Positions 28,658 to 44,293 of a stretch of DNA of 64,000 nt are shown here, in pieces. The DNA is from Thermomicrobiales bacterium (GTDB lineage: Bacteria > Chloroflexota > Chloroflexia > Thermomicrobiales > CFX8): contig DATKCN010000250.1 of assembly GCA_035513175.1 (NCBI GenBank), forward strand, positions 2,468-66,467, in the 5' to 3' direction. Position 1 is the first letter of the stretch. The number at the start of each line of letters is the position of its first letter. The translations under genes and the position numbers were made by a program. The notes beneath the pieces were generated by a model. It did not search any database, had not been told where the DNA came from, and saw only the letters and a list, made by a program, of their open reading frames with translations.

Positions 28658-29659
28658 ATGACTAAGCGGAGGACCTGCACGACGATCGACGCGCATGCTG
28701 GGGGGGAGCCGCTACGGATCGTTACTTCCGGTCTGCCGCCGCTCAAGGGCGCGACGATCCTCGAACGGCGTCGGGAGATGCTGGACCGGCACGACCACGT
28801 TCGCCGGGCGCTGATGTGGGAGCCGCGCGGCCACGCCGACATGTACGGCGCGATTCTCACACCGCCGGTGACGCCAGACGCGGACTACGGCGTGCTGTTC
28901 ATGCACAACGAGGGGTACTCCACGATGTGCGGGCACGGCATCATCGCCCTCACCACCGCGCTGATCGAAACGGGCTCGTTCCCCTGTGAGGGAGATTCGG
29001 CGACTATCGGCTACGACACTCCCGCCGGATTCGTGCGCGCCACGGCGCGGGTTGTCGACGGCCGCGCGAGGCAGGTCGCCTTCGAGAACGTGGCCTCGTT
29101 CGTGTTCGCCGACCTCGTCGAGATCGACATCGCGCACGGCCGCCTGCGCGTGCCGGTCGTGTTCGGCGGCGCGTTCTACGCGCTTGCCGACGCGAGCGCC
29201 GCGGGTTTGACGATCGAATCGGGCCGTGTGCGCGACCTGATCGACTTCGGCATGGCCGTCAAGCAGGCGGTCGAGGCGGCGCTGGACGTCGTCCACCCGA
29301 CCGAGCCGGAGCTGCGCGGCATTTACGGCACGATCGTCACCGGTCCCCCGACAGCCGGCGCCGATGGCCGCAACGTCACCATCTTCGCTGACGGCGAGGT
29401 CGATCGCTCCCCCTGCGGCACCGGCACGGCGGGGCGCGTTGCCTGGCTGCACGCCACCGGCGCGCTGGAGACCGGGCAGCTCTACACGCACGAGAGCATC
29501 ACCGGAGCCCGCTTCACCGGCCGCGTCTTGCGCGAAACGAGCGTCGGAGGCGTCGCCGCCGTCGTCCCCGAGATCGCCGGACGCGGTTACCTCACCGGCT
29601 TTCACACCTTCGTGATCGAGCCTGACGACCCGCTTAGCGGCGGCTTCCTCGTGCGGTGA
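28658..29659 (+). CDS. Proline racemase family protein (Cys/Cys type: proline racemase or 4-hydroxyproline 2-epimerase)
   Basis: 333 aa. IDAHAGGEPLRIV, first catalytic Cys in STMCGHG, second in DRSPCGTGT. GGGGAG 7 nt upstream. Confidence 0.85.
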   Translation: MTKRRTCTTIDAHAGGEPLRIVTSGLPPLKGATILERRREMLDRHDHVRRALMWEPRGHADMYGAILTPPVTPDADYGVLFMHNEGYSTMCGHGIIALTTALIETGSFPCEGDSATIGYDTPAGFVRATARVVDGRARQVAFENVASFVFADLVEIDIAHGRLRVPVVFGGAFYALADASAAGLTIESGRVRDLIDFGMAVKQAVEAALDVVHPTEPELRGIYGTIVTGPPTAGADGRNVTIFADGEVDRSPCGTGTAGRVAWLHATGALETGQLYTHESITGARFTGRVLRETSVGGVAAVVPEIAGRGYLTGFHTFVIEPDDPLSGGFLVR

Positions 29660-29670
29660 CGCTCCCCAAA

Positions 29671-30783
29671 CTACGCGTCACGCGTTGCGAACAGCAGGCA
29701 CACCGGCGACGGCGCCATCGTGACGTTGCCCGTCTCTTCCAGACGCCCCGACTCCCCGTCGACGCGGAACGTGACGATCGTGTCGCTGTTCTGGTTGGCG
29801 GCCAGCAGATAGCGTCCCGTTGGGTCGATTCCGAAGTTGCGCGGCTCCTCGCCCAGCGTTGACTGGTGTCCTGCCGGCGCAAGCGTGCCGTCGAGCGGGT
29901 CGATGGCGAAGATGGCAATGCTGTCGTGTCCCCGGTTCGAGCCGTAGAGAAACCTGCCGTCCGGCCTGACGTGGACATCCGCGCAGGAGTTCCTGCCGTC
30001 GAATCCCTCCGGCAGCGTCGAGATGGTCTGCCGTGGCTCCAGCACGCCGCCGACAAGGTCCCAGCGGCACGCTGTTATGGTCGAGTCCAGCTCGTTGATG
30101 ACGTAGACGAACGACGCTCCGGGATGGAACGCAAGGTGGCGCGGCCCCGCGCCCGGATGCAGGCTGGCGAACGGCGGGTCGTGCGGCGCGAGCCTCCCGA
30201 GCTCCAGATCGATGCGGTAGATGAGCACCTGATCGAGTCCGAGGTCGGCGACCAGCGCGACGGTGTTGGTCGGATCCGGTGTGATCGAGTGCGCGTGGGG
30301 TCCCTGCTGCCGCACTGGATGCACGCTGGAGCCGCTGTGCTGGTGGATGTCGCTGGCCTGCTTGAGCGAGCCGTCGCTCTCGACCGGCAACATGGCCACG
30401 CTGCCGGTCGCGTAATTCGCGACGAGGACGTACTGCCCGGTGGCGTCGACCATGAGGTGGCACGGATCGCCGCCGTGTGACGCCTCGCGGTTGAGAAAGC
30501 TGAGCCGCCCAGTCCCCGGATCGCGGGCGAAGGCGCTCACCGCGCCGCCATCGTGCCCGTCGATGCTGGGAACCTCGTTGACGGCGTACAGCGTCCTGCC
30601 ATCGGGCGCCAGCGCAAGGAAGGCGGGACTGGGAACGTCAGGGATCTCCTGCGCCAGCCGCAGCGCGCCGCTGTCGCTGTCGAACGAGTAGCAATAGAAG
30701 CCGTCGGCCCGGCCTCGCTCGCCGGGGCCGTGATGGGTGAACGTTCCAACGTAGACCCACGTCGCCGGGGCGTTGCCGCTCAT
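29671..30783 (-). CDS. Lactonase, 7-bladed beta-propeller family (6-phosphogluconolactonase-like)
   Basis: ORF trimmed to ATG 30783 (MSGNAPATWVYVGTF...), with GGAG 6 nt upstream. Repeated propeller blades with GxxPRH/F motifs (GAGPRHLAFHP, GEEPRNFGIDP). Confidence 0.8.
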   Translation of the reverse strand: MSGNAPATWVYVGTFTHHGPGERGRADGFYCYSFDSDSGALRLAQEIPDVPSPAFLALAPDGRTLYAVNEVPSIDGHDGGAVSAFARDPGTGRLSFLNREASHGGDPCHLMVDATGQYVLVANYATGSVAMLPVESDGSLKQASDIHQHSGSSVHPVRQQGPHAHSITPDPTNTVALVADLGLDQVLIYRIDLELGRLAPHDPPFASLHPGAGPRHLAFHPGASFVYVINELDSTITACRWDLVGGVLEPRQTISTLPEGFDGRNSCADVHVRPDGRFLYGSNRGHDSIAIFAIDPLDGTLAPAGHQSTLGEEPRNFGIDPTGRYLLAANQNSDTIVTFRVDGESGRLEETGNVTMAPSPVCLLFATRDA

Positions 30784-30811
30784 CGTTGACTCCGTTCTGC
30801 GTACTCCCGCG

Positions 30812-31177
30812 TCACGCCAGCGCGATGCAGGCGAAGCCGCACTTGGCCTGGGTTGGGACCCCGAAGCGCGCCGTGTGGCGGGCCGGGAGCCCATGCGGAA
30901 AGTGCTTCACGTATTCGGCGTTGATCTCCTGGTAGTCGGCTGAGTTGGTAATCAACAGCGTCACCTGGATCACCTTTTCCAGCGACGACCCGGCCTCCTC
31001 CAGCACCGCCTTCATGTTGTTGACGGCCGCGCGGGCTTCCTCGGTGGCCGTGCCGTGCACGCCGCCCGAGATGCCGGACACGAACACCAATCCCGCCGCC
31101 TTCGTCGCCCGCGAGAACGGCCGCGCCTCGCCCTCCGGTTGGCTGATGTACTCGATCCCGCGCTCCTGCTCCTGCAT
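30812..31177 (-). CDS. ridA: RidA/YjgF/L-PSP family reactive-intermediate deaminase
   Basis: ORF trimmed to ATG 31177 (MQEQERGIEYISQPEG...), with GGGGGAGG upstream. ~121 aa with the typical AGLVFVSG...KVIQVTLLITN...ARHTARFGVP pattern. Confidence 0.85.
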   Translation of the reverse strand: MQEQERGIEYISQPEGEARPFSRATKAAGLVFVSGISGGVHGTATEEARAAVNNMKAVLEEAGSSLEKVIQVTLLITNSADYQEINAEYVKHFPHGLPARHTARFGVPTQAKCGFACIALA

Positions 31178-31217
31178 ATCGCCTCCCCCTCTCCCACTTT
31201 CGCACGCGCCAGACCGC

Positions 31218-31255
31218 CGCATCATGCCAGCACGTCCGCATCATGCCAGCACGTC
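31218..31255. repeat. Perfect 19-nt tandem duplication CGCATCATGCCAGCACGTC x2 (+CGCA)
   Basis: Read directly. It lies ~40 nt upstream of the ridA start on the minus strand. Confidence 0.85.
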
Positions 31256-31274
31256 CGCAGCGGGGCAACACACG

Positions 31275-31769
31275 GAGTCGGGATGCGGGACGTGGCGGGG
31301 ATGGCGCGGGTAGCGCGCGCCGACCTCTGTAGGGGCCGGTCTTGCGCCGACCCACGGCCCGCTGGCCGTCCGGCAGGACCGGGCACGACGCAGGCACATG
31401 TGCGGTGAGCGCAACTAGTGCATGAGGAGTTCAAGGACGCCAAACCCATACACGTCCGGTTGTCGTCCTTGACCATGACGTAAACCGTCAGAGGCATCCG
31501 AGGCCGTTACGACACCGCCGGATCGGTCGGGCATCGCGGCGCGCGGCCAGCGGGCCGCCGGGCCCGGCAAGCCGCGGCCCCTACGGGGGTTGACAATGCG
31601 CCGCCGTTCGAAATCGGTCCGGCATCGACGCGGCGGCCTCACGGCCGAGGCCGGCACAAGACCGGCCCTAACCAGGATCGGCGCGCGGCATCCGAGCCCG
31701 TCGCCGCCGCGTCCCGCGTCCCGGCCAGCGCGTCCCGCTTCCCGACCAACGCGTTCCGCATCCCGACTC
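31275..31769. repeat. ~495-bp non-coding element bounded by 20-nt imperfect inverted repeats (18/20)
   Basis: Left arm GAGTCGGGATGCGGGACGTG (31275..31294). Right arm CGCGTTCCGCATCCCGACTC (31750..31769), whose reverse complement is GAGTCGGGATGCGGAACGCG. The interior has no coding-like ORF and is packed with REP-like hairpins and 7-nt-periodic repeats. No obvious target-site duplication. Confidence 0.55.
31329..31673. repeat. Three REP-like GTAGGGGCC-type hairpin elements (31329..31353 plus strand; 31561..31584 and 31647..31673 minus strand)
   Basis: GTAGGGGCCGGTCTTGCGCCGACCC. Reverse complement of 31561..31584 is GTAGGGGCCGCGGCTTGCCGGGCC. Reverse complement of 31647..31673 contains TTAGGGCCGGTCTTGTGCCGGCC (perfect GGCCGG/CCGGCC stem). 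Mutually similar, and similar to the motif at 4766. Confidence 0.55.
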
Positions 31770-31771
31770 AC
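31709..31771. repeat. 3 x 21-nt imperfect tandem repeat built from heptamers (GCGTCCC GCGTCCC GGCCAGC / GCGTCCC GCTTCCC GACCAAC / GCGTTCC GCATCCC GACTCAC)
   Basis: Read directly. The TGA stop of the M14-like gene (31770..31768) lies in the last heptamer. Confidence 0.8.
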
Positions 31772-34700
31772 CCTAGCCGCAACGGCCGCGCCCGCCCGAC
31801 GCGAAGGGTCACCGTCCCGTCCCCGTGCTCCGTCCGCCACCGGCTGATCGGCGGCGCGGCGGCCAGCAGCAGGTCGAGCGTCGCCCTGTTCGCCAGCAGG
31901 TGAGCCCGCGCCACCCGCTCAAGGTGCTCGCCTTCGGCCGTCTCGTCGTTTACCTCCGTCACCCACGAGAGCACCGTCGTCTTCGGGAAGCGGGTCGCGA
32001 AGCCCCTTCCCTGCGGATCGGGCGGCGCGGAGTCGATGTGCCACAGCATGTCGTCGTGAAACTCGCCCGGAAAGCGGTCGGGCAGGCGCGACTGACCCCA
32101 CTGGCGATAGCTCGCGCCGTAGACGCGGTTCCAATCGCCGATGTCGGTGTCGCGCACGATGGCCGACACCGCGTCGCGCAACGCCAGCGCCGCCGCCCGA
32201 TGCTCGGGATACTCCGGCGCGTCGACCCAGCGGGCGATGCCGTACAGCAGCGCCTGCGGAATCCAGTACGACACGCCGAATCGCGGCGGGGAGCCGAACC
32301 CGGCGAACGGCTGCACCCATTCGTGCGACGGCACCCCGTGGTTGTCGACGATCGCGTCGGCGGGCCAGCGCTCCCATACCGCGCGTCGCACGCGGGCCTC
32401 GCCGAAACGGGTGTCGGGATCGAACGTCCCCTCGCCGAACTCATAACCCAGCGCGTTGTAGCGCGCCGGGTGGTGCTTCCATGTGGTCGCGCCTGGCTCG
32501 GCCGCCAGCCGCGCGTGCAGCGCCGCGCCGTCCGGATTCTCATACGGCAGGATCAGCACGTTCACCGCGTCGAGGTAGCGCCGCCACTCGGGATCGGTCG
32601 CGCACAGCCAGGCCAGCCGGAACGCGGCGTTCGTGCTGGAGATTTCATTTGCGTGATGCCGCGCGACAACCAGATAGGTCGGTTTGAAGATGGCAGCCTT
32701 CATTGGAGAATGCAGCCTTCCCGGCGTCGGCGCCGCCAGCGACAGCGCGACCAGCGGCCGCCCCTGATACGAGTGGTCTTCCACCCAGGACGTGACCTCG
32801 GGGAAGGTGGCGAGCCCGGTCGCCCACGACATAACATCGTCACCGTGGATGTTGGTGTCCATTGGAGGGCCGGGGGATGAGGGCCGGGGGCCGCGAGGGG
32901 CGAGAAGCGAGGGGAGCGGCAGGCGGAGTTCAACGGATTCGGCTCCGAGGGAGATGATGGTAGATATTGAAGCGCCATCGGGCGTCGGCATCGCTGCCAG
33001 TTCGCGCAGGCGGGCGAGGGTTGGCCCGCTGTCGCCATCGACCTCTACAGCCACGTCGACGGCCAGTTCATCGCCGTGTCGGCGGATGCCGTCGACCCAG
33101 ACAGCGGGTAGCGGCAGGGCAGGCCGCTCCGGCGCGGCGCGTAGCGTGACGCGGGCGCGCGGCGCCTGCCCGGGCGTGACGCGCACCAGCGGGATGACCG
33201 CCCCTGGGGCGTTGCAGCGCTCGCCGGTCTGCGCGCGCCCGTACATCTCGATCGCGTCGAGCGTTGTGAAGTAGATGTCCTCGGCCAACGCCTCCGCCGC
33301 CGAATCGTTCTCCTCGCGCACGCCGACCGGCTCGTTCGGCTCGCTGATCCATACCTCGGCCAGCAGCTCGCCGAAGAACGGCTGGGCAGCGGAGTGCGCC
33401 CCGCCGCGCGCCTCGATCAGCCGCAGCAGCTCCGGAATGACCTCCTGCTGCCAGAAATCCCAGAAGGTTTCGAGGTCGGTCTGGAGTGGGAAGCTCCCTC
33501 GGCCCGTCGCACCGACGCCGTATACGCCGCCAGTTGTTACCTCGACCGTGCCGCTGTCGGGGATGGCCGCCACGAAGGGCCGGTAACGCGAGAGCCAGCC
33601 CAGTTCGTCGAGATACACGCTGCCGCCATGCTCATCGAAGGCCTCGACGGTGAAGATTCTCCGATCCTGCCGCCGTTTCACCATCTCGACCGCCTCAAGC
33701 GGGATGCGAAGCGCTTCCGCCAGCAGTTCGTTGCCCGGAAACAGCTCCTGCAGCCAGCGGATGGGCATGTCCAGCAAGCCCTCCGGGCGCAGAGGACCGT
33801 CTGTTCGCAGTGGGGGATAGCTGATCCGCACACGCGAGACCGGGAGACCTGCAAGGGCAGGAATGACAACCTCGCGCAGCCAACAGAGCCCGAACTTGAA
33901 CGAGCACAGCACGGTGACACGGGCGTTCGGGCAGCCGTATTCGGCGAGCAGCGTCTTCACCCGCTGGGCCAGCGCCTCGCGTTGAGCCAGAGGTTCGCTG
34001 ACGAACACCGTCAGGTGTTCAGTGCCCTCCAGCCAACCCCCTGCCAGCATCTCGATCAAACGGTCGACCTCCCACGCCGCTTCCCAGTCGCGCTGCCAGA
34101 TGATCTCGCCCGGCTCGTTCGGCTCCGGCCCGTCCCCCGCCAACCAGCGCCGCAGCGTGGCGACCGCCGAGGCCACGCCCCCGGTTTCGGGCGCGGTTAC
34201 ATGGGGCCATGTTGCGGCCACCTGCTCGATAAGCGCGGCCAGCGCCTCAGGCTCGCCCCCGGCCAGCCAACCGTTCGGCACGCGCCGGAGCGAGGCAGCC
34301 CCGTCGCCGGGCCGCACGTCGAAGACGGCGCCGCTGACGGCCTCGCGCACGAGCGGAAACGTCAGCCCTCCGCTTTCGACGCCCAGTCGCGCCGCCAGGT
34401 TCGCCAGCGCGACGCCCAGCGGCGTCGGAAGCTCGTCAGGGAGGGCGAGGGCGATCCGCGACGCGTCCGGCAGCCGGTCTCCGTCGCGGTCCAGCAAGGC
34501 GCCATCGATAGTGCACAGGCGCGTCAGGCAGCGGGCCGGCTCGACGCCATCCGGCAGTGACGACGCGCGGGTTTCTTCAAAGGCGCTCGCCGTGGGCAGA
34601 TCAGCGATCTCCGTGACGGTGACATGCTCCGCGCCATCCGGCAACACGGACGCTTCCGCGACAACCAGCGGCATCGGCAGCGCGTGCGTCTCCAGCCCTA

Positions 34701-34842
34701 TGCGCGCGGCGGCGTCGATCAGCGCGGCCCAGAAGGCGCGCTCCCCGCTCCGTTCAGGCAGGTCAACGACCAGCCTGGCCGTCGCGTCATCCGGGTAGCC
34801 GTCGCCGTTCCGATCGACGGCCCAATCGCTGCTCACCTGCAT
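31768..34842 (-). CDS. Large (1024-aa) protein with C-terminal M14 (carboxypeptidase A-like) metallopeptidase domain and ~650-aa unassigned N-terminal region
   Basis: ATG 34842 with GGGAGGGGG upstream. C-terminal third: VVARHHANEISSTNA (HxxE zinc motif), ILPYENPDGAALH, IVDNHGVPSHEW (third zinc His). No signal peptide seen. The N-terminal two thirds have no motif I recognise. Confidence 0.7.
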   Translation of the reverse strand: MQVSSDWAVDRNGDGYPDDATARLVVDLPERSGERAFWAALIDAAARIGLETHALPMPLVVAEASVLPDGAEHVTVTEIADLPTASAFEETRASSLPDGVEPARCLTRLCTIDGALLDRDGDRLPDASRIALALPDELPTPLGVALANLAARLGVESGGLTFPLVREAVSGAVFDVRPGDGAASLRRVPNGWLAGGEPEALAALIEQVAATWPHVTAPETGGVASAVATLRRWLAGDGPEPNEPGEIIWQRDWEAAWEVDRLIEMLAGGWLEGTEHLTVFVSEPLAQREALAQRVKTLLAEYGCPNARVTVLCSFKFGLCWLREVVIPALAGLPVSRVRISYPPLRTDGPLRPEGLLDMPIRWLQELFPGNELLAEALRIPLEAVEMVKRRQDRRIFTVEAFDEHGGSVYLDELGWLSRYRPFVAAIPDSGTVEVTTGGVYGVGATGRGSFPLQTDLETFWDFWQQEVIPELLRLIEARGGAHSAAQPFFGELLAEVWISEPNEPVGVREENDSAAEALAEDIYFTTLDAIEMYGRAQTGERCNAPGAVIPLVRVTPGQAPRARVTLRAAPERPALPLPAVWVDGIRRHGDELAVDVAVEVDGDSGPTLARLRELAAMPTPDGASISTIISLGAESVELRLPLPSLLAPRGPRPSSPGPPMDTNIHGDDVMSWATGLATFPEVTSWVEDHSYQGRPLVALSLAAPTPGRLHSPMKAAIFKPTYLVVARHHANEISSTNAAFRLAWLCATDPEWRRYLDAVNVLILPYENPDGAALHARLAAEPGATTWKHHPARYNALGYEFGEGTFDPDTRFGEARVRRAVWERWPADAIVDNHGVPSHEWVQPFAGFGSPPRFGVSYWIPQALLYGIARWVDAPEYPEHRAAALALRDAVSAIVRDTDIGDWNRVYGASYRQWGQSRLPDRFPGEFHDDMLWHIDSAPPDPQGRGFATRFPKTTVLSWVTEVNDETAEGEHLERVARAHLLANRATLDLLLAAAPPISRWRTEHGDGTVTLRVGRARPLRLG

Positions 34843-34953
34843 GGCGCCCCCTCCCGTGCCTGCAGGGCGATTGTACCGGTGTCGGTCTCGCTATAATGCG
34901 GGCACGAACGACGCGCGCCGCCGTCGTCACGTGGACGGAGCATAAGAAGCCCC

Positions 34954-35745
34954 ATGAGCACCCGATTCGACCCTCGCCCACACCTTCGGCAGCTCGAAAA
35001 CGGCTCGCTGTACCTGGACATCAAGTGGCGCCTGCACTGGCTGCGGTCCGAGCATCCGGATGCTCGCATCGAGACGGAGCTGGTATCCCTGGAAGGGGAT
35101 TCCGCCGTCTGCAAGGCCGTCATTCACGTTCCGGATGGCGGCTCGGCAACCGCCCATGGCAGCGCGTCCGGCGGCTCGCCCGTCGAGCAGGCCGAGTCCC
35201 GCGCCATTGGACGAGCGCTGGTCGCGCTCGGCTACGGCGCCGAGTTTGCCGACGAGGACCCGATTCAGGCGCGCGGCGCCGAGCGGCCCGTCTCGCTCGT
35301 GCGCCAGCCCGCGCCTATCCCGGAGCATCACGAGCGGCAGGAGCGGGGTGAGACGTCCGCCCCGCCGGTGCAGCTGCAGCAGCCGGAGCGCCCGCCACGT
35401 CCCGTGCGGCGCGACGATGACGCCGCAGAGCCACCCCCATTGCAACGCCAGCCCCGGGAAATCCACGAGGCCCCTCCCGCGCCGCAGGCCGCGCCCGCGA
35501 CCATGTCGCGCGGCTCGGATCTGCGCGAGCAGGTCAGCCAGGAGCCGACCGCCGAAACGTCCCGCGAAGACGTGTCGTGGACGCGCTTCTGGGAATGGGC
35601 GCGCCGCAGTGGCTATCGCGACGCGAGCCACCTGAAAGAACTGCTGGGCGTCGAGGTTTCCGGGCTGACGCCGCGCGAGGTGCGGGCCCACATCAAGCGG
35701 TACGAAATGGACCACCCGTCGCCGAGCGCGAGCGAGGAAGAGTGA
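34954..35745 (+). CDS. Hypothetical protein: possible Rad52/Sak-like N-terminal fold, Pro/Glu/Arg-rich linker, small helical C-terminal domain
   Basis: 263 aa with strong GC3 bias. N-terminus: YLDIKWRLHWLRSEHPDARIETELVSLEGDSAVCKAVIHVPDGGSATAHGSAS...EQAESRAIGRALVALGYG. The SD is weak or distant. The family call is tentative. Confidence 0.55.
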   Translation: MSTRFDPRPHLRQLENGSLYLDIKWRLHWLRSEHPDARIETELVSLEGDSAVCKAVIHVPDGGSATAHGSASGGSPVEQAESRAIGRALVALGYGAEFADEDPIQARGAERPVSLVRQPAPIPEHHERQERGETSAPPVQLQQPERPPRPVRRDDDAAEPPPLQRQPREIHEAPPAPQAAPATMSRGSDLREQVSQEPTAETSREDVSWTRFWEWARRSGYRDASHLKELLGVEVSGLTPREVRAHIKRYEMDHPSPSASEEE

Positions 35746-35770
35746 CCGCCTCCGCCGGGGCGCTCGACGG

Positions 35771-36952
35771 GTGACGGCAGCCGCACCCCCGCCGCGATCG
35801 GCCGCGCTCGACGAGCCCGCGACGCTGTTCACCGCCCCATTTCTCCTCACCTGCGCGACCGGCTTCGCGCTCTTCACCTCGTTCATGCTGATGCTTGCCA
35901 TTCTGCCCCTGCATTTGAAGGAGGAGCTGGGCGGGACTGACGCCGCGGTCGGGCTGATCATCGGCGTGTTCGCTTTCGCGGCGCTGTTCCCCCGTCCGTT
36001 CATCGGGCGCGAGATCGACCGCAGCGGCAGCAAGCGCTTCCTGATGGCAGGCGCGGTCATCTTCGTCTTTGCCTCGCTGCTGTACCTCGTCGCTGGCAAC
36101 ATCCCGCTGCTGATGGGTGTCCGGGTGCTGCACGGCGTCGGAATGGCCTGCTTTCACACCGCCGCGTTCTCCTTCGTCGCCGAACTGGCGCCCGCTCGCA
36201 GGCGCGGTGAGGCGATGGGCATCTGGGGCCTGATGTCGACCTTCGCCACCGCCATCGGCCCCTTCGTCGGGCTGATCATCCGCGACAGCGCCGGGACCGG
36301 CGCCGTCTTTCTGGTCTCCGCAGCCTGCGCCGCAACTGGCATGTTTCTCATAGCGTTCGTGCGCGAGCCGCCCCGCGCGGTCTACGACACGCCGCGCGAC
36401 GGTGGCCTGTTCGAGCCCGCCGTGCTCACCCCGGCCATCATGGTCGTCCTGCTGACGCTCGTCTACGGCGCCGTGTCGTCGTTCGTCCTGCTATATGCCG
36501 ATGAACGGGACATCGCGCGCAAGGGCTTGTACTTCACGGCCTTCGCGGCGGCGGTGCTGGCCTCGCGCGTCTTCGGCGGACGGCTTGCTGACCGTTATGG
36601 CCGCTGGGCAGTGATCCTGCCGGCCATGACCGTCACCGCCTGTGCGATGCTGACGTTGGCGATCACGTCCAGCCTGCCGCTCCTGCTGCTGGCGGGCATG
36701 CTGTTCGGCCTGGGCTTCGGGGCGGGACACCCCGCCATGACCGCGCTGGCAGTCGATCTCGTGCGGCCCGAGCGGCGTGGCGCCGGGATGGCGACCTTTA
36801 CGTCCGCTTTCGAGCTTGGCATCGGCAGCGGCTCGATCGTGATGGGGCTGGTCGCGGCCTCGACCGGATACGCGGCCATGTTCGCCATCTGCGCCGTCTT
36901 TCCGGCCATTGCCGTAGCCTATGGCGTAACTCGCCTGCGAGCGGCAGGCTGA
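35771..36952 (+). CDS. MFS transporter
   Basis: 393 aa with about 12 hydrophobic segments and an MFS loop motif (GREIDRSGSKR). GTG start. Confidence 0.85.
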   Translation: MTAAAPPPRSAALDEPATLFTAPFLLTCATGFALFTSFMLMLAILPLHLKEELGGTDAAVGLIIGVFAFAALFPRPFIGREIDRSGSKRFLMAGAVIFVFASLLYLVAGNIPLLMGVRVLHGVGMACFHTAAFSFVAELAPARRRGEAMGIWGLMSTFATAIGPFVGLIIRDSAGTGAVFLVSAACAATGMFLIAFVREPPRAVYDTPRDGGLFEPAVLTPAIMVVLLTLVYGAVSSFVLLYADERDIARKGLYFTAFAAAVLASRVFGGRLADRYGRWAVILPAMTVTACAMLTLAITSSLPLLLLAGMLFGLGFGAGHPAMTALAVDLVRPERRGAGMATFTSAFELGIGSGSIVMGLVAASTGYAAMFAICAVFPAIAVAYGVTRLRAAG

Positions 36953-36972
36953 CAAGCGGGCAGGGGAGAACC

Positions 36973-37776
36973 ATGGCGAATCAGCGGTCAAGGGGACGAC
37001 AGCGGGGCCGGCGTCGCTGGAGCGAGGAACAGCTTCATCACGGGCTGGACCTTGCCGACTACCTCGACGAGATGGTCGAGGTGCGCGCCGAGGCCGAGTC
37101 GAATCTGGCGCTCGCCGGAGAGCGCGCCCTCAAGGTGCTGGACCGCTTTCTCGCGAATCTGGCCGGCGCCATCGGCCTGTCGAACGAGCGGCCCGGCATG
37201 GGCGACTCGATCCGCTATCTGGAGCATCTTTCCGGCACGCCCCGCCAGATCGCCACGCAGGCCGACCGCTTCCGCGACACCCGCAACGCGCTGGCGCACA
37301 ATCCCGACATCACCCTGCGCCCCGAAGCGGCCGCCCGCATCATCGACGGCGTCGAGACGATCGTGCGCATGGCCGCCGAGCGCGTGCGCGATCTGGCGCA
37401 CGGGCACATCGTCACAGCGCTGGAGAACGAGCCGCTCGCAGACGCCCGCGACCGCCTGCTCGAACACCACTACGACCAGCTCGTCGTCGTCGACGCGGAC
37501 GGCGGCGTCGTCGACCTGCTCACTGACCGTGACATCGTGCTCGCCGAGGCCAACGAGGATGTCAACGGCTCCAACGACGTGTTCACCGTCGCAGACGCAA
37601 TCGCGCCGCGCGGACATCCGGCAATCGCGCTGCTTCCGGTGGGAGCCAGCGCCGCCGAGGCGGTGGGCGCGCTGCAGAACGAGCGCACCGGCGCCGTCGT
37701 GCTTACCCAGCACGGGCGAACCGGCGAGCCGCCGCTGGGCATCATTACGCGTAAGGACCTGTTGAAGACAATGTAG
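36973..37776 (+). CDS. HEPN-like helical domain fused to a CBS-domain pair
   Basis: 267 aa. GGGGAGAA before ATG 36973. The N-terminal ~135 aa is helical, with RFRDTRNALAHNPD (R-N-x3-H, fits the Rx4-6H HEPN motif). The C-terminus has two CBS repeats (HIVTALENEPLADARDRLLEHHYDQLVVVDADGGVVDLLTDRDIV; ...AVVLTQHGRTGEPPLGIITRKDLLK). Confidence 0.65.
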   Translation: MANQRSRGRQRGRRRWSEEQLHHGLDLADYLDEMVEVRAEAESNLALAGERALKVLDRFLANLAGAIGLSNERPGMGDSIRYLEHLSGTPRQIATQADRFRDTRNALAHNPDITLRPEAAARIIDGVETIVRMAAERVRDLAHGHIVTALENEPLADARDRLLEHHYDQLVVVDADGGVVDLLTDRDIVLAEANEDVNGSNDVFTVADAIAPRGHPAIALLPVGASAAEAVGALQNERTGAVVLTQHGRTGEPPLGIITRKDLLKTM

Positions 37777-38019
37777 GTGGGACGAAGCGTGTAACGCGGT
37801 GGGTCGGGACGCGGGGTGGCTTGCGACGAATCGAGGCCGTCGTCCGCACTGGCTCGTGAGGGGGTTCGATCTGTCCTCAACGCCGCGAGCAATTCGCGGC
37901 TCGCGAATTTGCGCACTCTGACGACGATTCTCGTCGCCACTTCCCCTCCCGTCGACGTAATGCGTCGCGCGCGTCGCGTGGGCGTCACGAAACCGCCGAT
38001 CCTTGCCTCGCCCACTGAA

Positions 38020-38047
38020 TTGACAACACTTCGGGAGCGCCTATACT
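38020..38047 (+). promoter_or_regulatory. Strong sigma70-type promoter candidate TTGACA-N16-TATACT upstream of the ABC transporter operon
   Basis: TTGACA 38020..38025 and TATACT 38042..38047. Predicted ~127-nt leader containing the perfect hairpin GTCGCG-tgct-CGCGAC (~38079..38094). It lies in a locally AT-richer segment. Confidence 0.5.
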
Positions 38048-38180
38048 ACCGCTAGCGCAATTCAACACACCGAAATAGTCGCGTGCTCGCGACCCCCCGA
38101 AACCGAGATTGCAACGACAGGGAGGTAACAACCGCCGTTTTCGTCGATTAATTGAAGTAAACGCGTGAAGGAGAAGCCAC

Positions 38181-39983
38181 ATGGAGCGGGACACGCTCGA
38201 ACGAACCGCGGCTCGTCTGACGACCGCCCGGCTCAACCGCCGCCGGCTGCTGATGATGGGCATTACCGGGTTGAGCATCGCAGCCACGCCACTTCTCAGC
38301 GCCTGTGGGGGAGACGACGATCCAACGGCAACCACCGCCGCGGCCCCGACCGCAACCACGCAAGCTCCCTTGGGAGACGCCACCAGCACGACCGGAACCG
38401 ACGCCAGCACTCCCACGACCGAAACCGCCGCCGCGTCGCCGACGACAGGCGCGCCAGCCCCCTCCGGTGGCCAGGTCAGCGTGCTGTGGCGCACGCCGAA
38501 CACCCTCAACCCGCTGTTCTCGACGGCAGGAAGCGAGCAGCAGATCGAGCGCCTGATCTTCGGAGCGCTGGTCAAGATGAACGACGTGCTCGAGCCCATC
38601 CCGGACATGGCGTCGTCCATCGAAATCTCCGACGACGCCAGCGTGTACACGTTCGTCATCCACGACAACGTCGTGTTCTCCGACGGTGTGCCACTGACCG
38701 CGGCCGACGCAATCTTCACGTTCGAGCGGGCGATCGACCAGCGCACCGGCAGCTACTGGCGCGGCCGCCTGAGCGGCATTGCCGGAGCGGTCGAGTACAG
38801 TGATCAGTCGGCCGACACGGTGACGGGGCTTAATGCGCCGGATGACCACACGGTCGAGATCACGCTGGCAACCCCGAACGCGGCGTTCCTCGTGAACTTC
38901 TGCAACTTCTCCGGCTTCGGCATCCTGCCTATGCACATACTGGGAGACGTTGCCCCCGAGCAGTTGCAGGAGCACCCATTCTCGCTGGCCCCGACGGTGT
39001 CGGCAGGTCCGTTCAAGTTCGTGACCTACGAGACCGACCAGTATATGGAGGTCGAGCGCCACGACGGCTACTGGGGCGATCCGCCGCCGCTGGACCGCAT
39101 CTTCCTGCGCATCCTCACCTCGGACGTCGGGCTGGCGCAGCTCGAAACTGGCGAGATCGACGTCATGACTCTGCCGATCAACGAGATCGCGCGCACCGAG
39201 GGTCTCGCCAACGCCCACGTCGAGAGCGTTCCAAGCCCCAGCATGTCCTTCCTCGCGCCAAACGTCGAGCGTGAGTTCTTCCAGGACAAGCGCGTGCGCC
39301 AGGCGATGATGTACGCCATCGACCGCGAGGGCATCCTGAACGCGGTCTTCGAGGGTCAGGGGCATCTCACGAACTCCCCGATCTTCGGCCCGGACTGGAT
39401 GGACGTGCCGGAAGGGCTCAACGAGTACGAGTACAACCCGGAGCGTGCCCGCGAGCTGCTGGAGGAGGCGGGCTGGGACTTCGACCGCACCGTCGAGCTG
39501 CTCATCACGCCCGGCAACCGCGAGGCCGACACGGCTATCGTCATCATCCAGGAGCAGTTCCGCGAGGTCGGCTTCCAGATGGATATTCTCCAGGTCGATG
39601 TCGCCGAGAACCAGCGGCGTTCGATCCAGTCCACCGACTTTGACATCCGCAACGTCGGCGGTGGCGTCTTCCGCGCGGACCCAAGCGTGTCGGGCACCTA
39701 CATGACGACCTCGACGTTCACTCCGGCCGGCGGCAACTACGGGCACTACTCGAATCCCGAGATCGACCGGCTGTATCCCGAAGCTCAAGCCGTGGGAGAC
39801 ACCGCCGAGCGCAAGCGCCTGTACACCGAGATCGCTCTGATCCTGAACGACGAGTGCCCGTGGATCTGGCTGTACTCGCCGAACTCGATCTACGGCGTAA
39901 GCAACCGCATCCAGGGCTTCCTGCCGCCGAGCTACATCGACAACAAGTTCTGGAACGCGGAAGAGTGGTCGGTCAGCGAGTAG
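38181..39983 (+). CDS. ABC transporter substrate-binding lipoprotein, family 5 (peptide/nickel/oligosaccharide, DppA/OppA-like)
   Basis: 600 aa. AAGGAGAAG SD. Tat-like signal plus lipobox (NRRRLLMMGITGLSIAATPLLSAC). Thr/Ala/Pro-rich linker, then a typical SBP_bac_5 body. Confidence 0.9.
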   Translation: MERDTLERTAARLTTARLNRRRLLMMGITGLSIAATPLLSACGGDDDPTATTAAAPTATTQAPLGDATSTTGTDASTPTTETAAASPTTGAPAPSGGQVSVLWRTPNTLNPLFSTAGSEQQIERLIFGALVKMNDVLEPIPDMASSIEISDDASVYTFVIHDNVVFSDGVPLTAADAIFTFERAIDQRTGSYWRGRLSGIAGAVEYSDQSADTVTGLNAPDDHTVEITLATPNAAFLVNFCNFSGFGILPMHILGDVAPEQLQEHPFSLAPTVSAGPFKFVTYETDQYMEVERHDGYWGDPPPLDRIFLRILTSDVGLAQLETGEIDVMTLPINEIARTEGLANAHVESVPSPSMSFLAPNVEREFFQDKRVRQAMMYAIDREGILNAVFEGQGHLTNSPIFGPDWMDVPEGLNEYEYNPERARELLEEAGWDFDRTVELLITPGNREADTAIVIIQEQFREVGFQMDILQVDVAENQRRSIQSTDFDIRNVGGGVFRADPSVSGTYMTTSTFTPAGGNYGHYSNPEIDRLYPEAQAVGDTAERKRLYTEIALILNDECPWIWLYSPNSIYGVSNRIQGFLPPSYIDNKFWNAEEWSVSE

Positions 39984-40076
39984 CAGCGCTCGCCGAGCGT
40001 GCCGGACGTGTGTGTCGTGGCGCCCGCGATCGCTAACGCGGGCGCCAACCTCCATGGATGGCGGTAAGCGGTAAGT

Positions 40077-41039
40077 ATGGGTCAATACATCCTTCGACGG
40101 CTGGTGATTAGTGTCCCGGTTCTGATCGGCATCACCATGGCCGTCTACATCATCGTCAATCTCGCGCCGGGCGATCCGGTCACGGCCATGATCGATCCCG
40201 AGGCGGTCATCAACCTCGGGCCGGAGTGGGTAGAAGACCAGAAGCGCAAGCTCGGACTGGATCGGCCGCTGCCGGTCCGTTACGGCCTCTGGCTCAGCGA
40301 AGTCGCCCAGGGCAATCTCGGCTTCTCCTTTAATGACCGGCGCTCGGTCTCCGGGAAAATCGGCGAGCGCATCTGGCCGACGCTCAAGCTGATGATCGCC
40401 GCCGAGGGCATTGCGCTGGTCATCGGCCTGCCAATCGGCATCATGTCCGCGCTCCGCCAGTATTCGAAGGGCGACTACATCGCCACCATCTTCGGGTTCA
40501 CTGCCATCTCGATTCCGTCCTTCTTCCTGGCATTGGGCTCGATTTACGTGTTCGCCGTGGTGCTGGGCTGGCTGCCAACGGCCGGCATGCGCACGCTGGG
40601 GACCGATCCGTCATTCATCGACTCGTTCAAGCATCTGATCCTGCCCGCGTCCGTGCTCGGGCTGGCCCAGGCCGCCCCGCTCATCCGCTACAGCCGCTCA
40701 AGCATGCTGGAGGTCCTGCGGCAGGACTACGTGCACGTCGCCCGGGCCAAGGGGCTGCGCGAGACCACGATCATCTCCCGGCACGCGCTGCGCAACGCCC
40801 TGATCCCGCTGGTGACGATCATCGCGCTGGACCTGCCCCGGCTGTTCGGCGGCACGATCATCGTCGAGCAGGTCTTCGCCTGGCCGGGCATGGGCACGCT
40901 CGCCATCGCGGCCGTGCGTGGCTACGACTACCCGGTCATCATGGCCATCAACCTGATCGGCGCCATCATGATTCTCTGCAGCAACCTGATGGCCGACGTG
41001 CTGTACGCGATCATCGATCCACGCATCAAGTACACGTAG
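40077..41039 (+). CDS. ABC transporter permease (DppB/OppB-like)
   Basis: 320 aa. MGQYILRRLVISVPVLIGITMAVYIIVNLAPGDP N-terminus and the EAA-loop region RAKGLRETTIISRHALRNALIP. Confidence 0.9.
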   Translation: MGQYILRRLVISVPVLIGITMAVYIIVNLAPGDPVTAMIDPEAVINLGPEWVEDQKRKLGLDRPLPVRYGLWLSEVAQGNLGFSFNDRRSVSGKIGERIWPTLKLMIAAEGIALVIGLPIGIMSALRQYSKGDYIATIFGFTAISIPSFFLALGSIYVFAVVLGWLPTAGMRTLGTDPSFIDSFKHLILPASVLGLAQAAPLIRYSRSSMLEVLRQDYVHVARAKGLRETTIISRHALRNALIPLVTIIALDLPRLFGGTIIVEQVFAWPGMGTLAIAAVRGYDYPVIMAINLIGAIMILCSNLMADVLYAIIDPRIKYT

Positions 41040-41057
41040 GGCCTGGAGGAGCGACGG

Positions 41058-42005
41058 GTGGTTCAAGACGGATCGAAGGTCGGGACTGGACCGTTGGCGA
41101 CGCCTGCGGCTGGGCCGCAAGCCAGTGAGTCACTGACGACCCTCGGCTCCGCCGCTCCGCAACGGCGCCGCACCAGCGTCTGGCAGCGCTTCCGCCGCCA
41201 CCGGCTGGCGCTGATCGGGCTGACCATCCTCGTGCTTTTGGCAATCGTCTCGATCGGGGCGCCGCTCTTCACCCAACATGGTCCGTACAGCGTTGATCTG
41301 CGTTCGGCCCGCATGGGGCCGACCTCCAGCCACATTCTGGGGTCTGACCCCGCCGGGCGCGATGTCTTCAGCCGGCTGTTGTACGCCGGGCGGGTGTCGC
41401 TTTCAGTTGGCATTGTTGCCGTCGCGATCTACACCGTCATCGGGGTTGTCCTGGGCGCGGTCGCGGGCTTCTACGGCGGGTGGGTCGACTCCACGATCAT
41501 GCGGCTGGCCGACATCGTGCTGGCGTTTCCATCGCTGCTGATCATCATCACCGTCGTGTCGGTGCTAGGCCCCAGCCTGTTCAACATCATGCTCGTCATC
41601 GGCCTGCTCGGCTGGCCGCCGATCACGCGCCTGCTGCGTGGCGAGTTCCTGTCGCTGCGCGAGCGCGAGTTCATCGTCGCCGCGCGCGCCACCGGGGCGA
41701 GGAACAACCGGCTGATGTTCCGGCACCTGCTGCCGAACGCCATCGCGCCGATCATCGTTGCCGCCACCTTCGGCGTGGCGAACGCCATCCTGCTGGAGGC
41801 CGGGCTGAGCTTTCTCGGTCTGGGCGTGCAGCCGCCGACGCCGAGTTGGGGTAGCATGCTGACGGGCGCGCAGTCGCTGACCGTGCTGGAGTCGATGCCG
41901 TGGCTGTGGGTTCCGCCGGGCGTCATGATCGCCGTGGCGGTGCTCTCGATCAACTTCATCGGCGATGGCCTGCGGGACGCCCTCGACCCGTATCTGTCCC
42001 GCTGA
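41058..42005 (+). CDS. ABC transporter permease (DppC/OppC-like)
   Basis: 315 aa. GTG start with GGAGGAG 6 nt upstream. REFIVAARATGARNNRLMFRHLLPNAIAP EAA loop. No ATPase gene follows. Confidence 0.9.
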   Translation: MVQDGSKVGTGPLATPAAGPQASESLTTLGSAAPQRRRTSVWQRFRRHRLALIGLTILVLLAIVSIGAPLFTQHGPYSVDLRSARMGPTSSHILGSDPAGRDVFSRLLYAGRVSLSVGIVAVAIYTVIGVVLGAVAGFYGGWVDSTIMRLADIVLAFPSLLIIITVVSVLGPSLFNIMLVIGLLGWPPITRLLRGEFLSLREREFIVAARATGARNNRLMFRHLLPNAIAPIIVAATFGVANAILLEAGLSFLGLGVQPPTPSWGSMLTGAQSLTVLESMPWLWVPPGVMIAVAVLSINFIGDGLRDALDPYLSR

Positions 42006-42106
42006 TCCGCTGCCCACGCGTCTATTGCGTATATGAGGAGGGCCGCCCTGTAGAGACCGCGCCAGGCGCCTCGACGATCTGTTTTCAACCGGGGAGGGAA
42101 CGCAAC

Positions 42107-43282
42107 GTGTCAGACATATACGGCAGGCTCGGCCTGCGTCCGCTCATCAACGCGCGCGGATCGCACACGCGGCTCGGCGGCTCGATCATGCCCGCCGAGG
42201 TGCTCGACGCCATGCGCGAGGCTGCTCAAACGTACATCGTGCTGGAGGAGCTGCAGGAGAAGGCCAGTGAGGTCATCGCCCGCGCTACCGGCGCCGAGGC
42301 CGGGATGGTCACCGGAGGGGCCGCGGCAGGACTGATACTCGGGACCGCCGCCTGCATCGCCGGGAGCGATCCGGCCAGCATCGAGCGCCTTCCGGACACG
42401 TCCGGCATGAAGGGCGACGTGGTGATGCATCGCGCGCACCGCAACGGCTACGACCACAGTGTCCGCGCCGCCGGGGCGCGCATCGTCGAAGCAGGCTACG
42501 GGCACGGCACGATTCCCTACCAGCTCGAAGCGGCTATCGGCGAGCAGACGGCGCTCGTCTTCTACGTGATGGCTCCCTGGGCCAGCAAGGGCGCGCTCTC
42601 GCTGCGGAAAACCTGCGAAATCGCCCACCGCAAGGGCGTGCCGGTCATGGTCGACGCCGCCGCGATGCTGCCGCCCGCCGAAAACCTCACGCGCATCATC
42701 GCCGACGGCGCCGATCTGGTGGTCTACAGCGGCGGCAAGGGCATCCGTGGCCCGCAGTCGTCCGGCATTCTGGCGGGCCGCGCCGATCTCGTCCGTGCTG
42801 CGGCCATGAACGGCAGCCCGAATCACAGCATTGGGCGCCCTGCCAAGGCCGCGCGTGAGGACATCGTCGGGCTCATCGTCGCGCTGGAACGCTTCATGGC
42901 GCTCGATCACGACGCGGAGCTGGCGCGCTGCCGCGCGCAGGCCGAGTTCATGCTCGGCAAGCTGGGAGACTTTCCGGGCGTTGAGGCGCACTACCGGCAC
43001 GACGGCTACGAGCACCCGATGCCGCGCGTCGAGCTGGTCATCGACCGTGCCGAGACCGGCATCGAAGCCGGAGAGCTGATAGGCGCGCTGGAACAGGGCG
43101 ATCCGCGCGTGTTCGTCATCGCCTGGAACGGCCCGACGGCCAGCCCGAACAACATCACGATAAATACCCACACGATGCTGCCCGGAGAGGAGGACGCCGT
43201 CGCCGAGGTCATCGGTCACGCGCTCCGGCAGCGATTGAATGCAAACGCGCCCGCGCTGGCGGGCAGTGTCGCGAGCTTATAG
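42107..43282 (+). CDS. SelA-like / DgaE-like PLP-dependent enzyme (fold-type I; lacks the SelA N-terminal domain)
   Basis: ORF 41900..43282 trimmed to GTG 42107 (GGGAGGGA upstream). YSGGKGIRGPQSSGILAG carries the PLP-Lys context shared with SelA (SGDKLLGGPQ). ~391 aa. Confidence 0.7.
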   Translation: MSDIYGRLGLRPLINARGSHTRLGGSIMPAEVLDAMREAAQTYIVLEELQEKASEVIARATGAEAGMVTGGAAAGLILGTAACIAGSDPASIERLPDTSGMKGDVVMHRAHRNGYDHSVRAAGARIVEAGYGHGTIPYQLEAAIGEQTALVFYVMAPWASKGALSLRKTCEIAHRKGVPVMVDAAAMLPPAENLTRIIADGADLVVYSGGKGIRGPQSSGILAGRADLVRAAAMNGSPNHSIGRPAKAAREDIVGLIVALERFMALDHDAELARCRAQAEFMLGKLGDFPGVEAHYRHDGYEHPMPRVELVIDRAETGIEAGELIGALEQGDPRVFVIAWNGPTASPNNITINTHTMLPGEEDAVAEVIGHALRQRLNANAPALAGSVASL

Positions 43283-43318
43283 GACCACATACGGAGCCAC
43301 AGGGGCGGAAGGGGAACC

Positions 43319-44293
43319 ATGACGGCCACTCGCCAACCACCGGAACAACATCAGACGAGCGTGACGATGCCGCCTGACTTCGACGAGTTCTGGTCGCAGA
43401 TCATGAGCGAGGTCGCCGAGATCCCGCTGAACGCGAGCATGACGCACGCGCCGATGCGCTCCACTGACGAGGTGGACGTCTACGAGGTCCACTATGACAG
43501 TCTCGACAGCGTCCGGATCGCGGGCTGGTACTGCCGCCCGAAGGAGAGCTACCTCGCGCCGCCGTATCCGGCGCTGCTGATCGTGCCGGGCTATGTGTCC
43601 GAGCCGTCGCTGCCGAAGTCGTGGTCCAAAATGGGGTACGCGGCGGTGGGCGTCGCCCCGCGCGGCAAGCTGCGCTCGAACCGGCAGTTCAACCCCGGCT
43701 ACCCGAACCTGCTGACGCACAACATCATCGACCGCAACACCTACTCCTACCGCGGCTTCTACGTCGACGCCGCTCGCGCCGTCGATTTCGTGCTGTCCCG
43801 CCCGGAGGTCGACCCCTCACGCGTCGGCGTGCACGGCAGCTCGCAGGGCGGGGCGCTTACGATCACGACCGCCGCGCTGCGCAACGACGTCATCACCTGC
43901 GGCGCTGCCGGGGCCCCGTACCTGTGCGGGTTCATGGACGCCGCGTCGCTGACGCACTCGTATCCCTACGAGGAGATCAACGACTACCTGCGGCTGCACC
44001 CCGAGCACGAGGTGGCCGCGCGGGAAACGCTCAACTACTTCGACGGCATAAACTTCGCGCCGCGCATCAAAGCGGACATGCTGGTCTACATCGGGCTTGA
44101 GGACGATGTCTGCCCGCCGGAGACCGGCTACGACCTGGTGCGGGCCATGACGTGTCCGGTCGAGTTGATCGCGACCCCCAACTGCGCGCACGACGCCGGG
44201 CGCAAATGGGTCACACCGAAGGTTGAGGCGTTCCTGAACGAGCGCCTGCTGCCGGCCGCCTCCCAGTTGCACGCCGAGCCGACGGTCGGATAG
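43319..44293 (+). CDS. Acetylxylan esterase / cephalosporin-C deacetylase family (CE7, AXE1)
   Basis: 324 aa. N-terminal DFDEFW motif, nucleophile elbow GVHGSSQGG, DDVCPP (Asp), CAHD (His). Confidence 0.85.
   Translation: MTATRQPPEQHQTSVTMPPDFDEFWSQIMSEVAEIPLNASMTHAPMRSTDEVDVYEVHYDSLDSVRIAGWYCRPKESYLAPPYPALLIVPGYVSEPSLPKSWSKMGYAAVGVAPRGKLRSNRQFNPGYPNLLTHNIIDRNTYSYRGFYVDAARAVDFVLSRPEVDPSRVGVHGSSQGGALTITTAALRNDVITCGAAGAPYLCGFMDAASLTHSYPYEEINDYLRLHPEHEVAARETLNYFDGINFAPRIKADMLVYIGLEDDVCPPETGYDLVRAMTCPVELIATPNCAHDAGRKWVTPKVEAFLNERLLPAASQLHAEPTVG

Follow-up and report, generated by a model that had tools for sequence, protein, structure and literature searches.

A HEPN-fold domain fused to a CBS pair in Thermomicrobiales: a candidate ligand-gated ribonuclease

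A stretch of 64,000 nucleotides (nt) from an uncultured Thermomicrobiales bacterium (contig DATKCN010000250.1, positions 2,468 to 66,467 of the forward strand; hereafter the window) carries at 36973-37776 a gene for a protein of 267 amino acids (aa), here called the HEPN-CBS protein, in which a HEPN-fold domain with a family-wide R-N-x-x-x-H motif precedes a pair of CBS repeats. The gene probably encodes a ligand-gated HEPN endoribonuclease in which the nuclease and the sensor coupled to it lie on a single chain, with a physiological role likelier than one in defence. The combination of the two domains, and the hypothesis attached to it, are already published: in 2013 Anantharaman et al. described a Swt1-like HEPN domain fused to 'CBS and HD (alr3009), active' and suggested that the CBS part senses nucleotides, regulating RNA stability (PMC3710099). 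One family of this design, the anti-phage system DS-11, has since been validated (PMC13092281). What is newly seen here is a rare HEPN-CBS family of the reverse domain order, which is restricted to Chloroflexota, syntenic and chromosomally stable.

The gene and its product

The open reading frame (ORF) with its motif is real and lies exactly where the preliminary description of this DNA had placed it. A Shine-Dalgarno-like sequence ahead of the ATG supports the annotated start at 36973, and the stop codon is of the TGA type (37774-37776). An identical protein stands in the public record as 'CBS domain-containing protein [Thermomicrobiales bacterium]', taken from a Thermomicrobiales metagenome-assembled genome (MAG). 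The GC content of the gene (68.9%) is close to the 67.0% of the window, and an opposite-strand ORF (36988..37713, 241 aa) was rejected as a high-GC artefact, because the + frame holds the conserved domains and has 86 homologues. The chain consists of an Arg-rich tail, a helical N-terminal domain (N-domain) with RFRDTRNALAHNPD, and two CBS repeats. Its features are listed below, with residues numbered along the 267-aa chain.

36963..36968, + strand: Shine-Dalgarno-like GGGGAG, 4 nt upstream of the ATG (read directly from the sequence)
36973..37776, + strand: complete HEPN-CBS gene, ATG start, 267 aa, stop included (ORF list and translation)
36973..37035, + strand: disordered Arg-rich N-terminal tail, residues 1-21, MANQRSRGRQRGRRRWSEEQL (predicted local distance difference test, pLDDT, <50)
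37036..37377, + strand: HEPN-fold domain, residues 22-135 (AlphaFold2 (AF2) models, Foldseek matches, sub-threshold Pfam HEPN matches)
37120..37134, + strand: E50-R-A-L-K54, Ex3[KR] motif in helix 2 (motif as defined in PMC3710099)
37267..37308, + strand: extended conserved block R99-D112, residues 99-112, RFRDTRNALAHNPD (sequence and homologue conservation)
37282..37299, + strand: R104-N-A-L-A-H109 (RNALAH), predicted catalytic Rx4H at the end of helix 3 (conservation and fold position)
37384..37566, + strand: CBS repeat 1, residues 138-198, with Y167, Q169 and T184-D-R-D187 (Pfam CBS, AF2 secondary structure)
37579..37773, + strand: CBS repeat 2, residues 203-267, with T259-R-K-D262 (second Pfam CBS stretch, PDB fold matches)

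The N-terminal domain

In the published definition of HEPN domains, the Rx4-6H motif ends helix 3 and enters the loop to helix 4, a polar N, D or H follows the R, and an acidic residue stands upstream in helix 2, typically within Ex3[KR], which is frequent and not obligatory (PMC3710099). The AF2 model of the N-domain agrees with this definition. It is a four-helix up-down bundle (27-41, 45-67, 89-109 and 117-133) with an insert between helices 2 and 3 (residues 68-88, holding the short helix 76-84) that fits the same definition; R104...H109, followed by NPD, lies at the very end of helix 3, entering the loop, N105 directly follows the R, and E50-RAL-K54 lies within helix 45-67. The model is confident, with a mean pLDDT of 88 and a predicted template modelling score (pTM) of 0.72 over the full length, a pLDDT of 91.7 and a pTM of 0.85 for the N-domain modelled alone, and a pLDDT of 90-97 over its helices.

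When the isolated N-domain was compared with PDB structures by Foldseek, HEPN proteins made up 11 of the 13 best matches. The first of these is the HEPN protein AF_0298 (2hsb; template modelling (TM) score 0.69, probability 1.00), and the best matches also include the HepT toxins 6m6w, 7bxo and 5yep, the Csm6 HEPN domains 6tug and 5yjc, and the prophage HepS 9oij; a fourth HepT structure, 8xdj, comes lower in the list, and the four HepT structures have TM scores of 0.50-0.54. TT1696 (1ufb), also a HEPN protein, belongs to the same set of best matches. The preliminary description had proposed a HEPN-like domain and had named a non-HEPN four-helix bundle as the outcome that would speak against it; no such bundle was seen, and the predicted structure settles the fold of the N-domain as HEPN.

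Two other candidate relationships were rejected. The full-length fold search was dominated by the CBS half, and matches to MgtE cytosolic domains reflect the CBS part alone rather than the N-domain, because their root-mean-square deviation (rmsd) is 13.6-15.1 Å (9.8 Å for 2yvy) at a TM score of about 0.4. A match of the N-domain profile to proteasome RPN7 among PDB sequences (E about 0.05) covers a helical stretch in which R and H lie off any active site, and is put down to chance.

Certain observations weigh against the HEPN reading and its proposed active site. The Foldseek E-values of the N-domain are only 0.1-1.2. Small helical bundles typically give such weak values, and the fold assignment draws its weight from HEPN proteins being enriched throughout the matches rather than from one score. 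The Ex3K motif is not kept in distant relatives, where the position of E50 is variable (D4 E2 and others), and the top fold match, 2hsb, comes from a HEPN subgroup without the canonical H (PMC3710099). No match to a HEPN family profile is significant, the best being HEPN_Swt1 (PF18731) with 13.8 bits and E 0.073 against a gathering threshold of 27.5, in an alignment limited to the motif region (residues 95-132 to profile positions 77-112 of 115). At the level of Pfam profiles, the evidence for the HEPN assignment of the preliminary description is sub-threshold: weak matches recur over the 82 close-family members scanned singly (HEPN_Swt1 in 29/82, HepT-like in 12/82, DUF4145 in 1/82), and the recurring ones on the N-domain are all to HEPN-clan families, but every one is below threshold, the best HEPN_Swt1 E-value among members being 0.0071. 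As a calibration, the validated DS-11 protein yields no HEPN match with the same hmmscan, so weak profile scores are normal for such a domain; its authors assigned the DS-11 domain to HEPN_Swt1 by HHpred (probability 0.98; PMC13092281). By profile, the HEPN-CBS protein is not filed as a PF18731 member, and HEPN_Swt1 is only its closest family.

Conservation of the motif

Homology searches found 86 homologues, nearly all with the same two-part layout, and conservation was read from two alignments, one of 82 close-family sequences (A2) and a wide one of 13 sequences that includes relatives of 22-29% identity (A4). In the former, R101, R104, N105, H109 and P111 are invariant, and E50 and K54 are kept in 76/82 and 79/82 sequences, respectively. 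In the latter, R104 and H109 are present in 13/13 sequences and N105 in 12/13, while nearly all else is variable. No polar residues other than R, N and H are kept family-wide, a pattern that reads as an active-site signature. The preliminary description had pointed to an R-N-x-x-x-H variant of the Rx4-6H motif in the N-domain; it is present as RNALAH at residues 104-109, and the loss of its R/H pair among homologues, which would have spoken against the proposal, was seen in neither alignment.

A bare Rx4-6H motif by itself carries no meaning here, with six occurrences in this Arg-rich protein against about three expected. The stricter form RNx3H would be expected 0.04 times by chance, and RNALAH stands above chance because it is the sole copy that is invariant in the homologues and sits at the correct place in the fold.

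The N-terminal tail holds seven R or K in 20 residues. In 59/82 homologues a tail of 10 residues or more is present, R and K making up 26% of it on average, and what recurs is its composition and not its sequence; about one quarter of the homologues lack it and begin directly at the HEPN domain. This disordered Arg-rich tail may help to bind RNA.

The CBS pair

The C-terminal half is the canonical Bateman module of two CBS repeats that had been read from the sequence at the outset. Pfam CBS (PF00571) matches it in two stretches (E = 3.7e-15, 56.4 bits against a cut-off of 24), the sequence matches of the protein among solved structures are all CBS proteins, and the Bateman-module fold matches have target-normalised TM scores of 0.65-0.82 and rmsd of 2.2-3.5 Å. 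The order of strands and helices in the AF2 model fits the beta-alpha-beta-beta-alpha fold of CBS repeats.

Both repeats carry a [T/S]-x-x-D element that is 97-100% conserved, T184-D-R-D187 and T259-R-K-D262. In repeat 1, position 167 is Y or F in 76/82 sequences, Q169 is present in 82/82, T or S at 184 in 82/82 and D187 in 80/82; in repeat 2, T259 and R260 are each present in 82/82 and D262 in 80/82. In solved CBS structures, the [T/S]-x-x-D element touches the ribose of adenosine-type ligands. BLASTP of repeat 1 aligns Y167 with Y157 of DS-11, an aromatic residue essential in that protein. An adenine-containing ligand is plausible because the [T/S]-x-x-D elements and this equivalent of Y157 are conserved.

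Distribution of the family

The family is rare. The N-domain profile gave 19 matches at E <= 0.001 among 1.84 billion representative proteins, about a dozen of them the relatives of 22-29% identity, and a close relative occurs in 12 of 185,579 species (one genome each), all of them uncultured Thermomicrobiales or Chloroflexia MAGs. The order of HEPN domain and then CBS pair is found in 9/11 aligned distant relatives, the exceptions (P0092 and P0097) being short or degenerate sequences. A third homology search with a broadened N-domain profile added two further proteins and no additional architectures, and a literature search found no paper describing this Chloroflexota HEPN-CBS family. Public records label the homologues 'CBS domain-containing protein' or, in a few JGI records, 'predicted transcriptional regulator', so that a probable nuclease goes unannotated.

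Some members depart from the common layout. P0091 (392 aa; L023 2783-3961, L024 2380-3558) has a Roadblock/LC7 domain ahead of the HEPN-CBS core, a putative second sensor or regulator module that would make it a three-domain variant, and its gene adjoins a carbamoyl-phosphate synthase small-chain gene and acetyltransferase genes. In P0083, P0084 and P0085 the HEPN domain is kept and the CBS half is garbled or missing, with frameshift-like sequence past the ARDRML region; pseudogenes, faulty assembly and genuine HEPN-only proteins are each possible explanations.

Genomic context

The HEPN-CBS gene does not sit in the surroundings of a toxin or defence gene. Its neighbours are transport and metabolic genes without a defence signal, and no CRISPR or defence gene was found among the ten genes on either side (window 28658-44293). 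By tblastn no relative was found in 50,697 phage records or in 72,556 plasmid records, and the protein has no match in PHROGs, in PADLOC or in the viral structure library BFVD, searched by fold. The genes and loci referred to below are these:

35771-36952: MFS transporter gene, upstream neighbour
38181-39983: family-5 ABC solute-binding protein gene (SBP_bac_5), downstream neighbour, followed by permeases
L002 6812-7597, L004 6810-7613, L007 6884-7702 and loci L015-L021: LOG-family genes of clade B, about 35-70 bp downstream of the HEPN-CBS gene

The MFS and solute-binding protein genes are the immediate neighbours, and the absence of an adjacent MNT antitoxin gene, noted in the preliminary description, is upheld: no MNT-type nucleotidyltransferase adjoins the gene in the window, and neither there nor at 20 or more related loci is it flanked by an MNT gene or another small conserved partner; at the related loci, MR_MLE, LOG, response regulator and glycosyltransferase genes lie alongside. 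Rfam gave no match over the whole window, and no riboswitch or RNA partner was detected.

The related loci fall into two clades. In clade A, whose members are 54-75% identical to the query, the genes run M14 peptidase, 263-aa protein, MFS transporter, a bracketed pair of a 281-aa protein and an MR_MLE enzyme, and HEPN-CBS; the locus of the window belongs here and lacks the bracketed pair. In clade B (about 47-51% identical) the order is glycosyltransferase, in some loci a response regulator, HEPN-CBS and a LOG-family protein. No partner gene is common to both clades, from which it follows that the HEPN-CBS gene would act alone. At loci L005 and L013 the identity to the query is 56-60% for the HEPN-CBS protein, 60-64% for the MFS transporter and 51-54% for the M14 peptidase; the similar values indicate that the gene evolves at the pace of its neighbours, unlike a fast-evolving conflict gene.

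A functional coupling to the upstream MFS gene across the 20-nt gap (36953-36972) was rejected, because two other genes lie between MFS and HEPN-CBS in L005 (3951-5975) and L013 (3936-5915). Their products are an uncharacterised protein of 281 aa and an enzyme of the MR_MLE family, and the short gap in the window points either to a deletion of the two genes or to an insertion in the others. Further upstream, the 263-aa ORF (34954-35745, + strand) has no Pfam match in the window, its L005 orthologue has PF27148 (Slr1353_N), and the order M14 peptidase, 263-aa ORF, MFS is kept in L005 and L013, the 263-aa ORF at 45-48% identity.

A LOG-family gene (PF03641 Lysine_decarbox / PF18306 LDcluster4) follows HEPN-CBS on the same strand at every clade-B locus with downstream sequence, a linkage that could reflect plain synteny or a nucleotide-processing partner. 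Its orthologue in the window (13700-14461, - strand; 65% identity) lies 23 kb from the HEPN-CBS gene on the other strand. Downstream of the gene is an intergenic gap of 400 nt (37777-38180), in which no terminator-like site was seen and Rfam found no match; a near-consensus sigma-70-like site (38020-38047, + strand; TTGACA, 16 nt, TATACT; 11/12 matches) stands there ahead of the solute-binding gene. A PLP-dependent enzyme at 41900-43282 (+ strand), similar to SelA or aminotransferase class V, gives a PADLOC SspA match (E 1.7e-5, 22 bits) that most likely reflects the PLP fold in general rather than a defence function.

Comparison with known systems

The closest validated counterpart by design is DS-11 (WP_000257686.1, 365 aa), a one-protein CBS and HEPN anti-phage system reported with DefensePredictor (bioRxiv 2025, Science 2026) and found outside defence islands, in which the substitutions Y157A in the CBS part and R330A or H335A in the HEPN domain each abolish protection (PMC13092281). 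Both proteins combine a CBS pair and a Swt1-like HEPN domain in one polypeptide, neither has a partner gene, and R-N-x3-H has equal spacing in the two (RNDVMH in DS-11, RNALAH in the HEPN-CBS protein), to which the Y157/Y167 correspondence may be added. The architecture differs: DS-11 runs from an N-terminal region through CBS (about 125-245) to HEPN (252-359, with R330 and H335), whereas in the HEPN-CBS protein the HEPN domain (22-135) comes first and the CBS pair (138-267) follows, and the chain is about 100 aa shorter, without the N-terminal region of about 120 aa.

Sequence comparison keeps the two apart as well. NCBIfam NF053863 ('CBS domain-containing anti-phage protein') scores 12.7 bits on the HEPN-CBS protein against a cut-off of 260, in an alignment that covers CBS repeat 1 only (residues 133-194 to profile positions 70-133 of 305), and BLASTP against DS-11 aligns the CBS part alone (23% identity, E 0.04). 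By hhalign, the N-domain profile found nothing in the single DS-11 sequence; against a profile of 117 DS-11 HEPN sequences it aligned with the catalytic motifs in register (E 0.011, probability 3.9%), RNaLAH on RNDVMH and GDSIRYLE on GEYIRLLE, values too weak for a specific HEPN homology to be claimed. Relatives of DS-11 number at least 3,643 and are mostly proteobacterial, whereas the HEPN-CBS family is rare, restricted to Chloroflexota and syntenic. By sequence and domain order the HEPN-CBS protein is not a member of the DS-11 family, its HEPN domain is at best remotely related, and the two fusions are probably independent.

Other systems share single elements of this design. The fusions of 2013 (alr3009; Pelobacter propionicus gi 118580987; PMC3710099) have the same domain pairing and carry the same nucleotide-sensing hypothesis; compared here by description only, they often include an HD phosphohydrolase that is absent from the HEPN-CBS protein. 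In Csm6/Csx1 (CARF-HEPN) and in RNase L/Ire1 (sensor-KEN), a nucleotide-binding sensor domain is likewise fused to a HEPN RNase. Their HEPN dimers are activated by ligand. The sensor is a Bateman module in the HEPN-CBS protein, as opposed to CARF, ankyrin or kinase in those systems; the protein has no CARF match, and no CRISPR or cyclase context lies nearby. The likeness to Csm6 and RNase L would be one of mechanism and not of family membership. With HepT-MntA it shares a small HEPN domain with Rx4H and differs in its fused CBS pair and in having no MNT neighbour at any locus; the HepT form Rx4HxY is missing (RNALAHNP).

Proposed mechanism and alternative explanations

What is said here of the function of the HEPN-CBS protein, from catalysis and dimerisation to the class of ligand, the direction in which it regulates and the biological role, is prediction. 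CBS pairs normally dimerise and shift upon nucleotide binding. In the mechanism proposed here, metal-independent RNA cleavage by the N-terminal HEPN domain would use H109 as general base with R104, N105 and probably E50/K54, and the C-terminal Bateman module would bind a ligand of the adenine-nucleotide type. As with HEPN RNases in general, the active site would be expected to require the pairing of two HEPN domains, and ligand occupancy of the CBS dimer would set the juxtaposition of the two R104/H109 motifs, switching cleavage on or off. In the AF2 model hardly any linker separates helix 4 of the HEPN domain from CBS repeat 1, which would make the coupling rigid. This scheme draws on known HEPN RNases, in which H is the general base together with R and the following polar residue, no metal is needed and the dimer is active (PMC3710099; for DS-11, PMC13092281), and DS-11 is its experimental precedent. 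With a sensor fused in cis, the protein would have no need of the separate antitoxin on which other HEPN toxins depend, and its task would be to turn over RNA or arrest growth according to nucleotide or energy status.

A role in physiology or stress is judged likelier than dedicated phage defence, because the gene is vertically inherited, syntenic and away from defence or mobile genes. This preference has its own weak side: the lack of a defence context counts little against defence, because DS-11 and other validated defence genes were discovered for the very reason that they lie outside defence islands. The same CBS-gated HEPN RNase might be a single-protein abortive-infection system that acts against phages and is triggered by a nucleotide signal of infection. 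In favour of it, DS-11 has the same two domain types, equal R-x4-H spacing and a Swt1-like HEPN domain, is experimentally protective and itself lies outside defence islands, and HEPN domains are predominantly components of conflict systems (PMC3710099). It is rendered rather unlikely by the 12.7 bits against a cut-off of 260, the reversed order and the missing N-terminal region of about 120 aa, by the weak alignment of the two HEPN profiles (E 0.011, probability 3.9%), by a kept synteny, a divergence matching that of the neighbours and confinement to one lineage as against at least 3,643 mostly proteobacterial DS-11 relatives, and by the lack of any match in PADLOC, PHROGs or the phage and plasmid collections.

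The remaining explanations concern the HEPN domain itself. As a non-catalytic module it would bind RNA, protein or ligand within a CBS-controlled regulatory factor; inactive HEPN domains, namely those without Rx4-6H, exist, and those of the MtlR or Swt1 type have been proposed to be binding modules only (PMC3710099). The annotation of some homologues as 'predicted transcriptional regulator' and the chromosomal, syntenic setting would suit such a regulator, whereas the family-wide retention of R, N and H, in place of the loss that marks inactive domains, and the finding of no DNA-binding domain in the protein by Pfam scan make it quite improbable. Many stand-alone HEPN proteins are HepT-type toxins, and HepT structures stand among the fold matches, with weak HepT-like profile matches in 12/82 members. 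A toxin served by an antitoxin (MNT or other) from elsewhere in the genome, or from a small unannotated ORF or RNA nearby, is nevertheless very improbable, as neither the window nor 20 or more related loci have an MNT or small conserved partner beside the gene, the two clades have different flanking genes, Rfam finds nothing in the window, and the fused CBS pair would provide control in cis instead.

The ligand-gated endoribonuclease with a physiological role may also be framed more narrowly, as a vertically inherited housekeeping enzyme whose Bateman module reads adenine-nucleotide or energy status and converts it into RNA degradation or dormancy, a fusion independent of DS-11 with LOG as off-switch. 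In this form the downstream LOG-type nucleotide hydrolase of clade B could clear the ligand, analogous to ring nucleases. Taken as a whole, this narrower version is unlikely; if true, it would give a non-defence counterpart of the Csm6/RNase L logic in a Thermomicrobiales lineage.

Significance

HEPN RNases endanger the cells that carry them, and their restraint normally comes from a separate antitoxin, from a second messenger made by CRISPR systems or from a sensor of the kinase type. That a CBS pair could be the switch built into a HEPN protein was suggested in 2013, and DS-11 is the one validated example. To a specialist the architecture is unsurprising, and the value of the present family lies in a second, apparently independent fusion and in the hint of a role outside defence. 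This second fusion, with its opposite domain order, strengthens the case for CBS-to-HEPN coupling as a real and recurrent design, and the compact protein of 267 aa offers a handle for the identity of the ligand and the geometry of switching. Its stable chromosomal setting suggests that CBS-HEPN switches possibly serve ordinary physiology besides phage defence.

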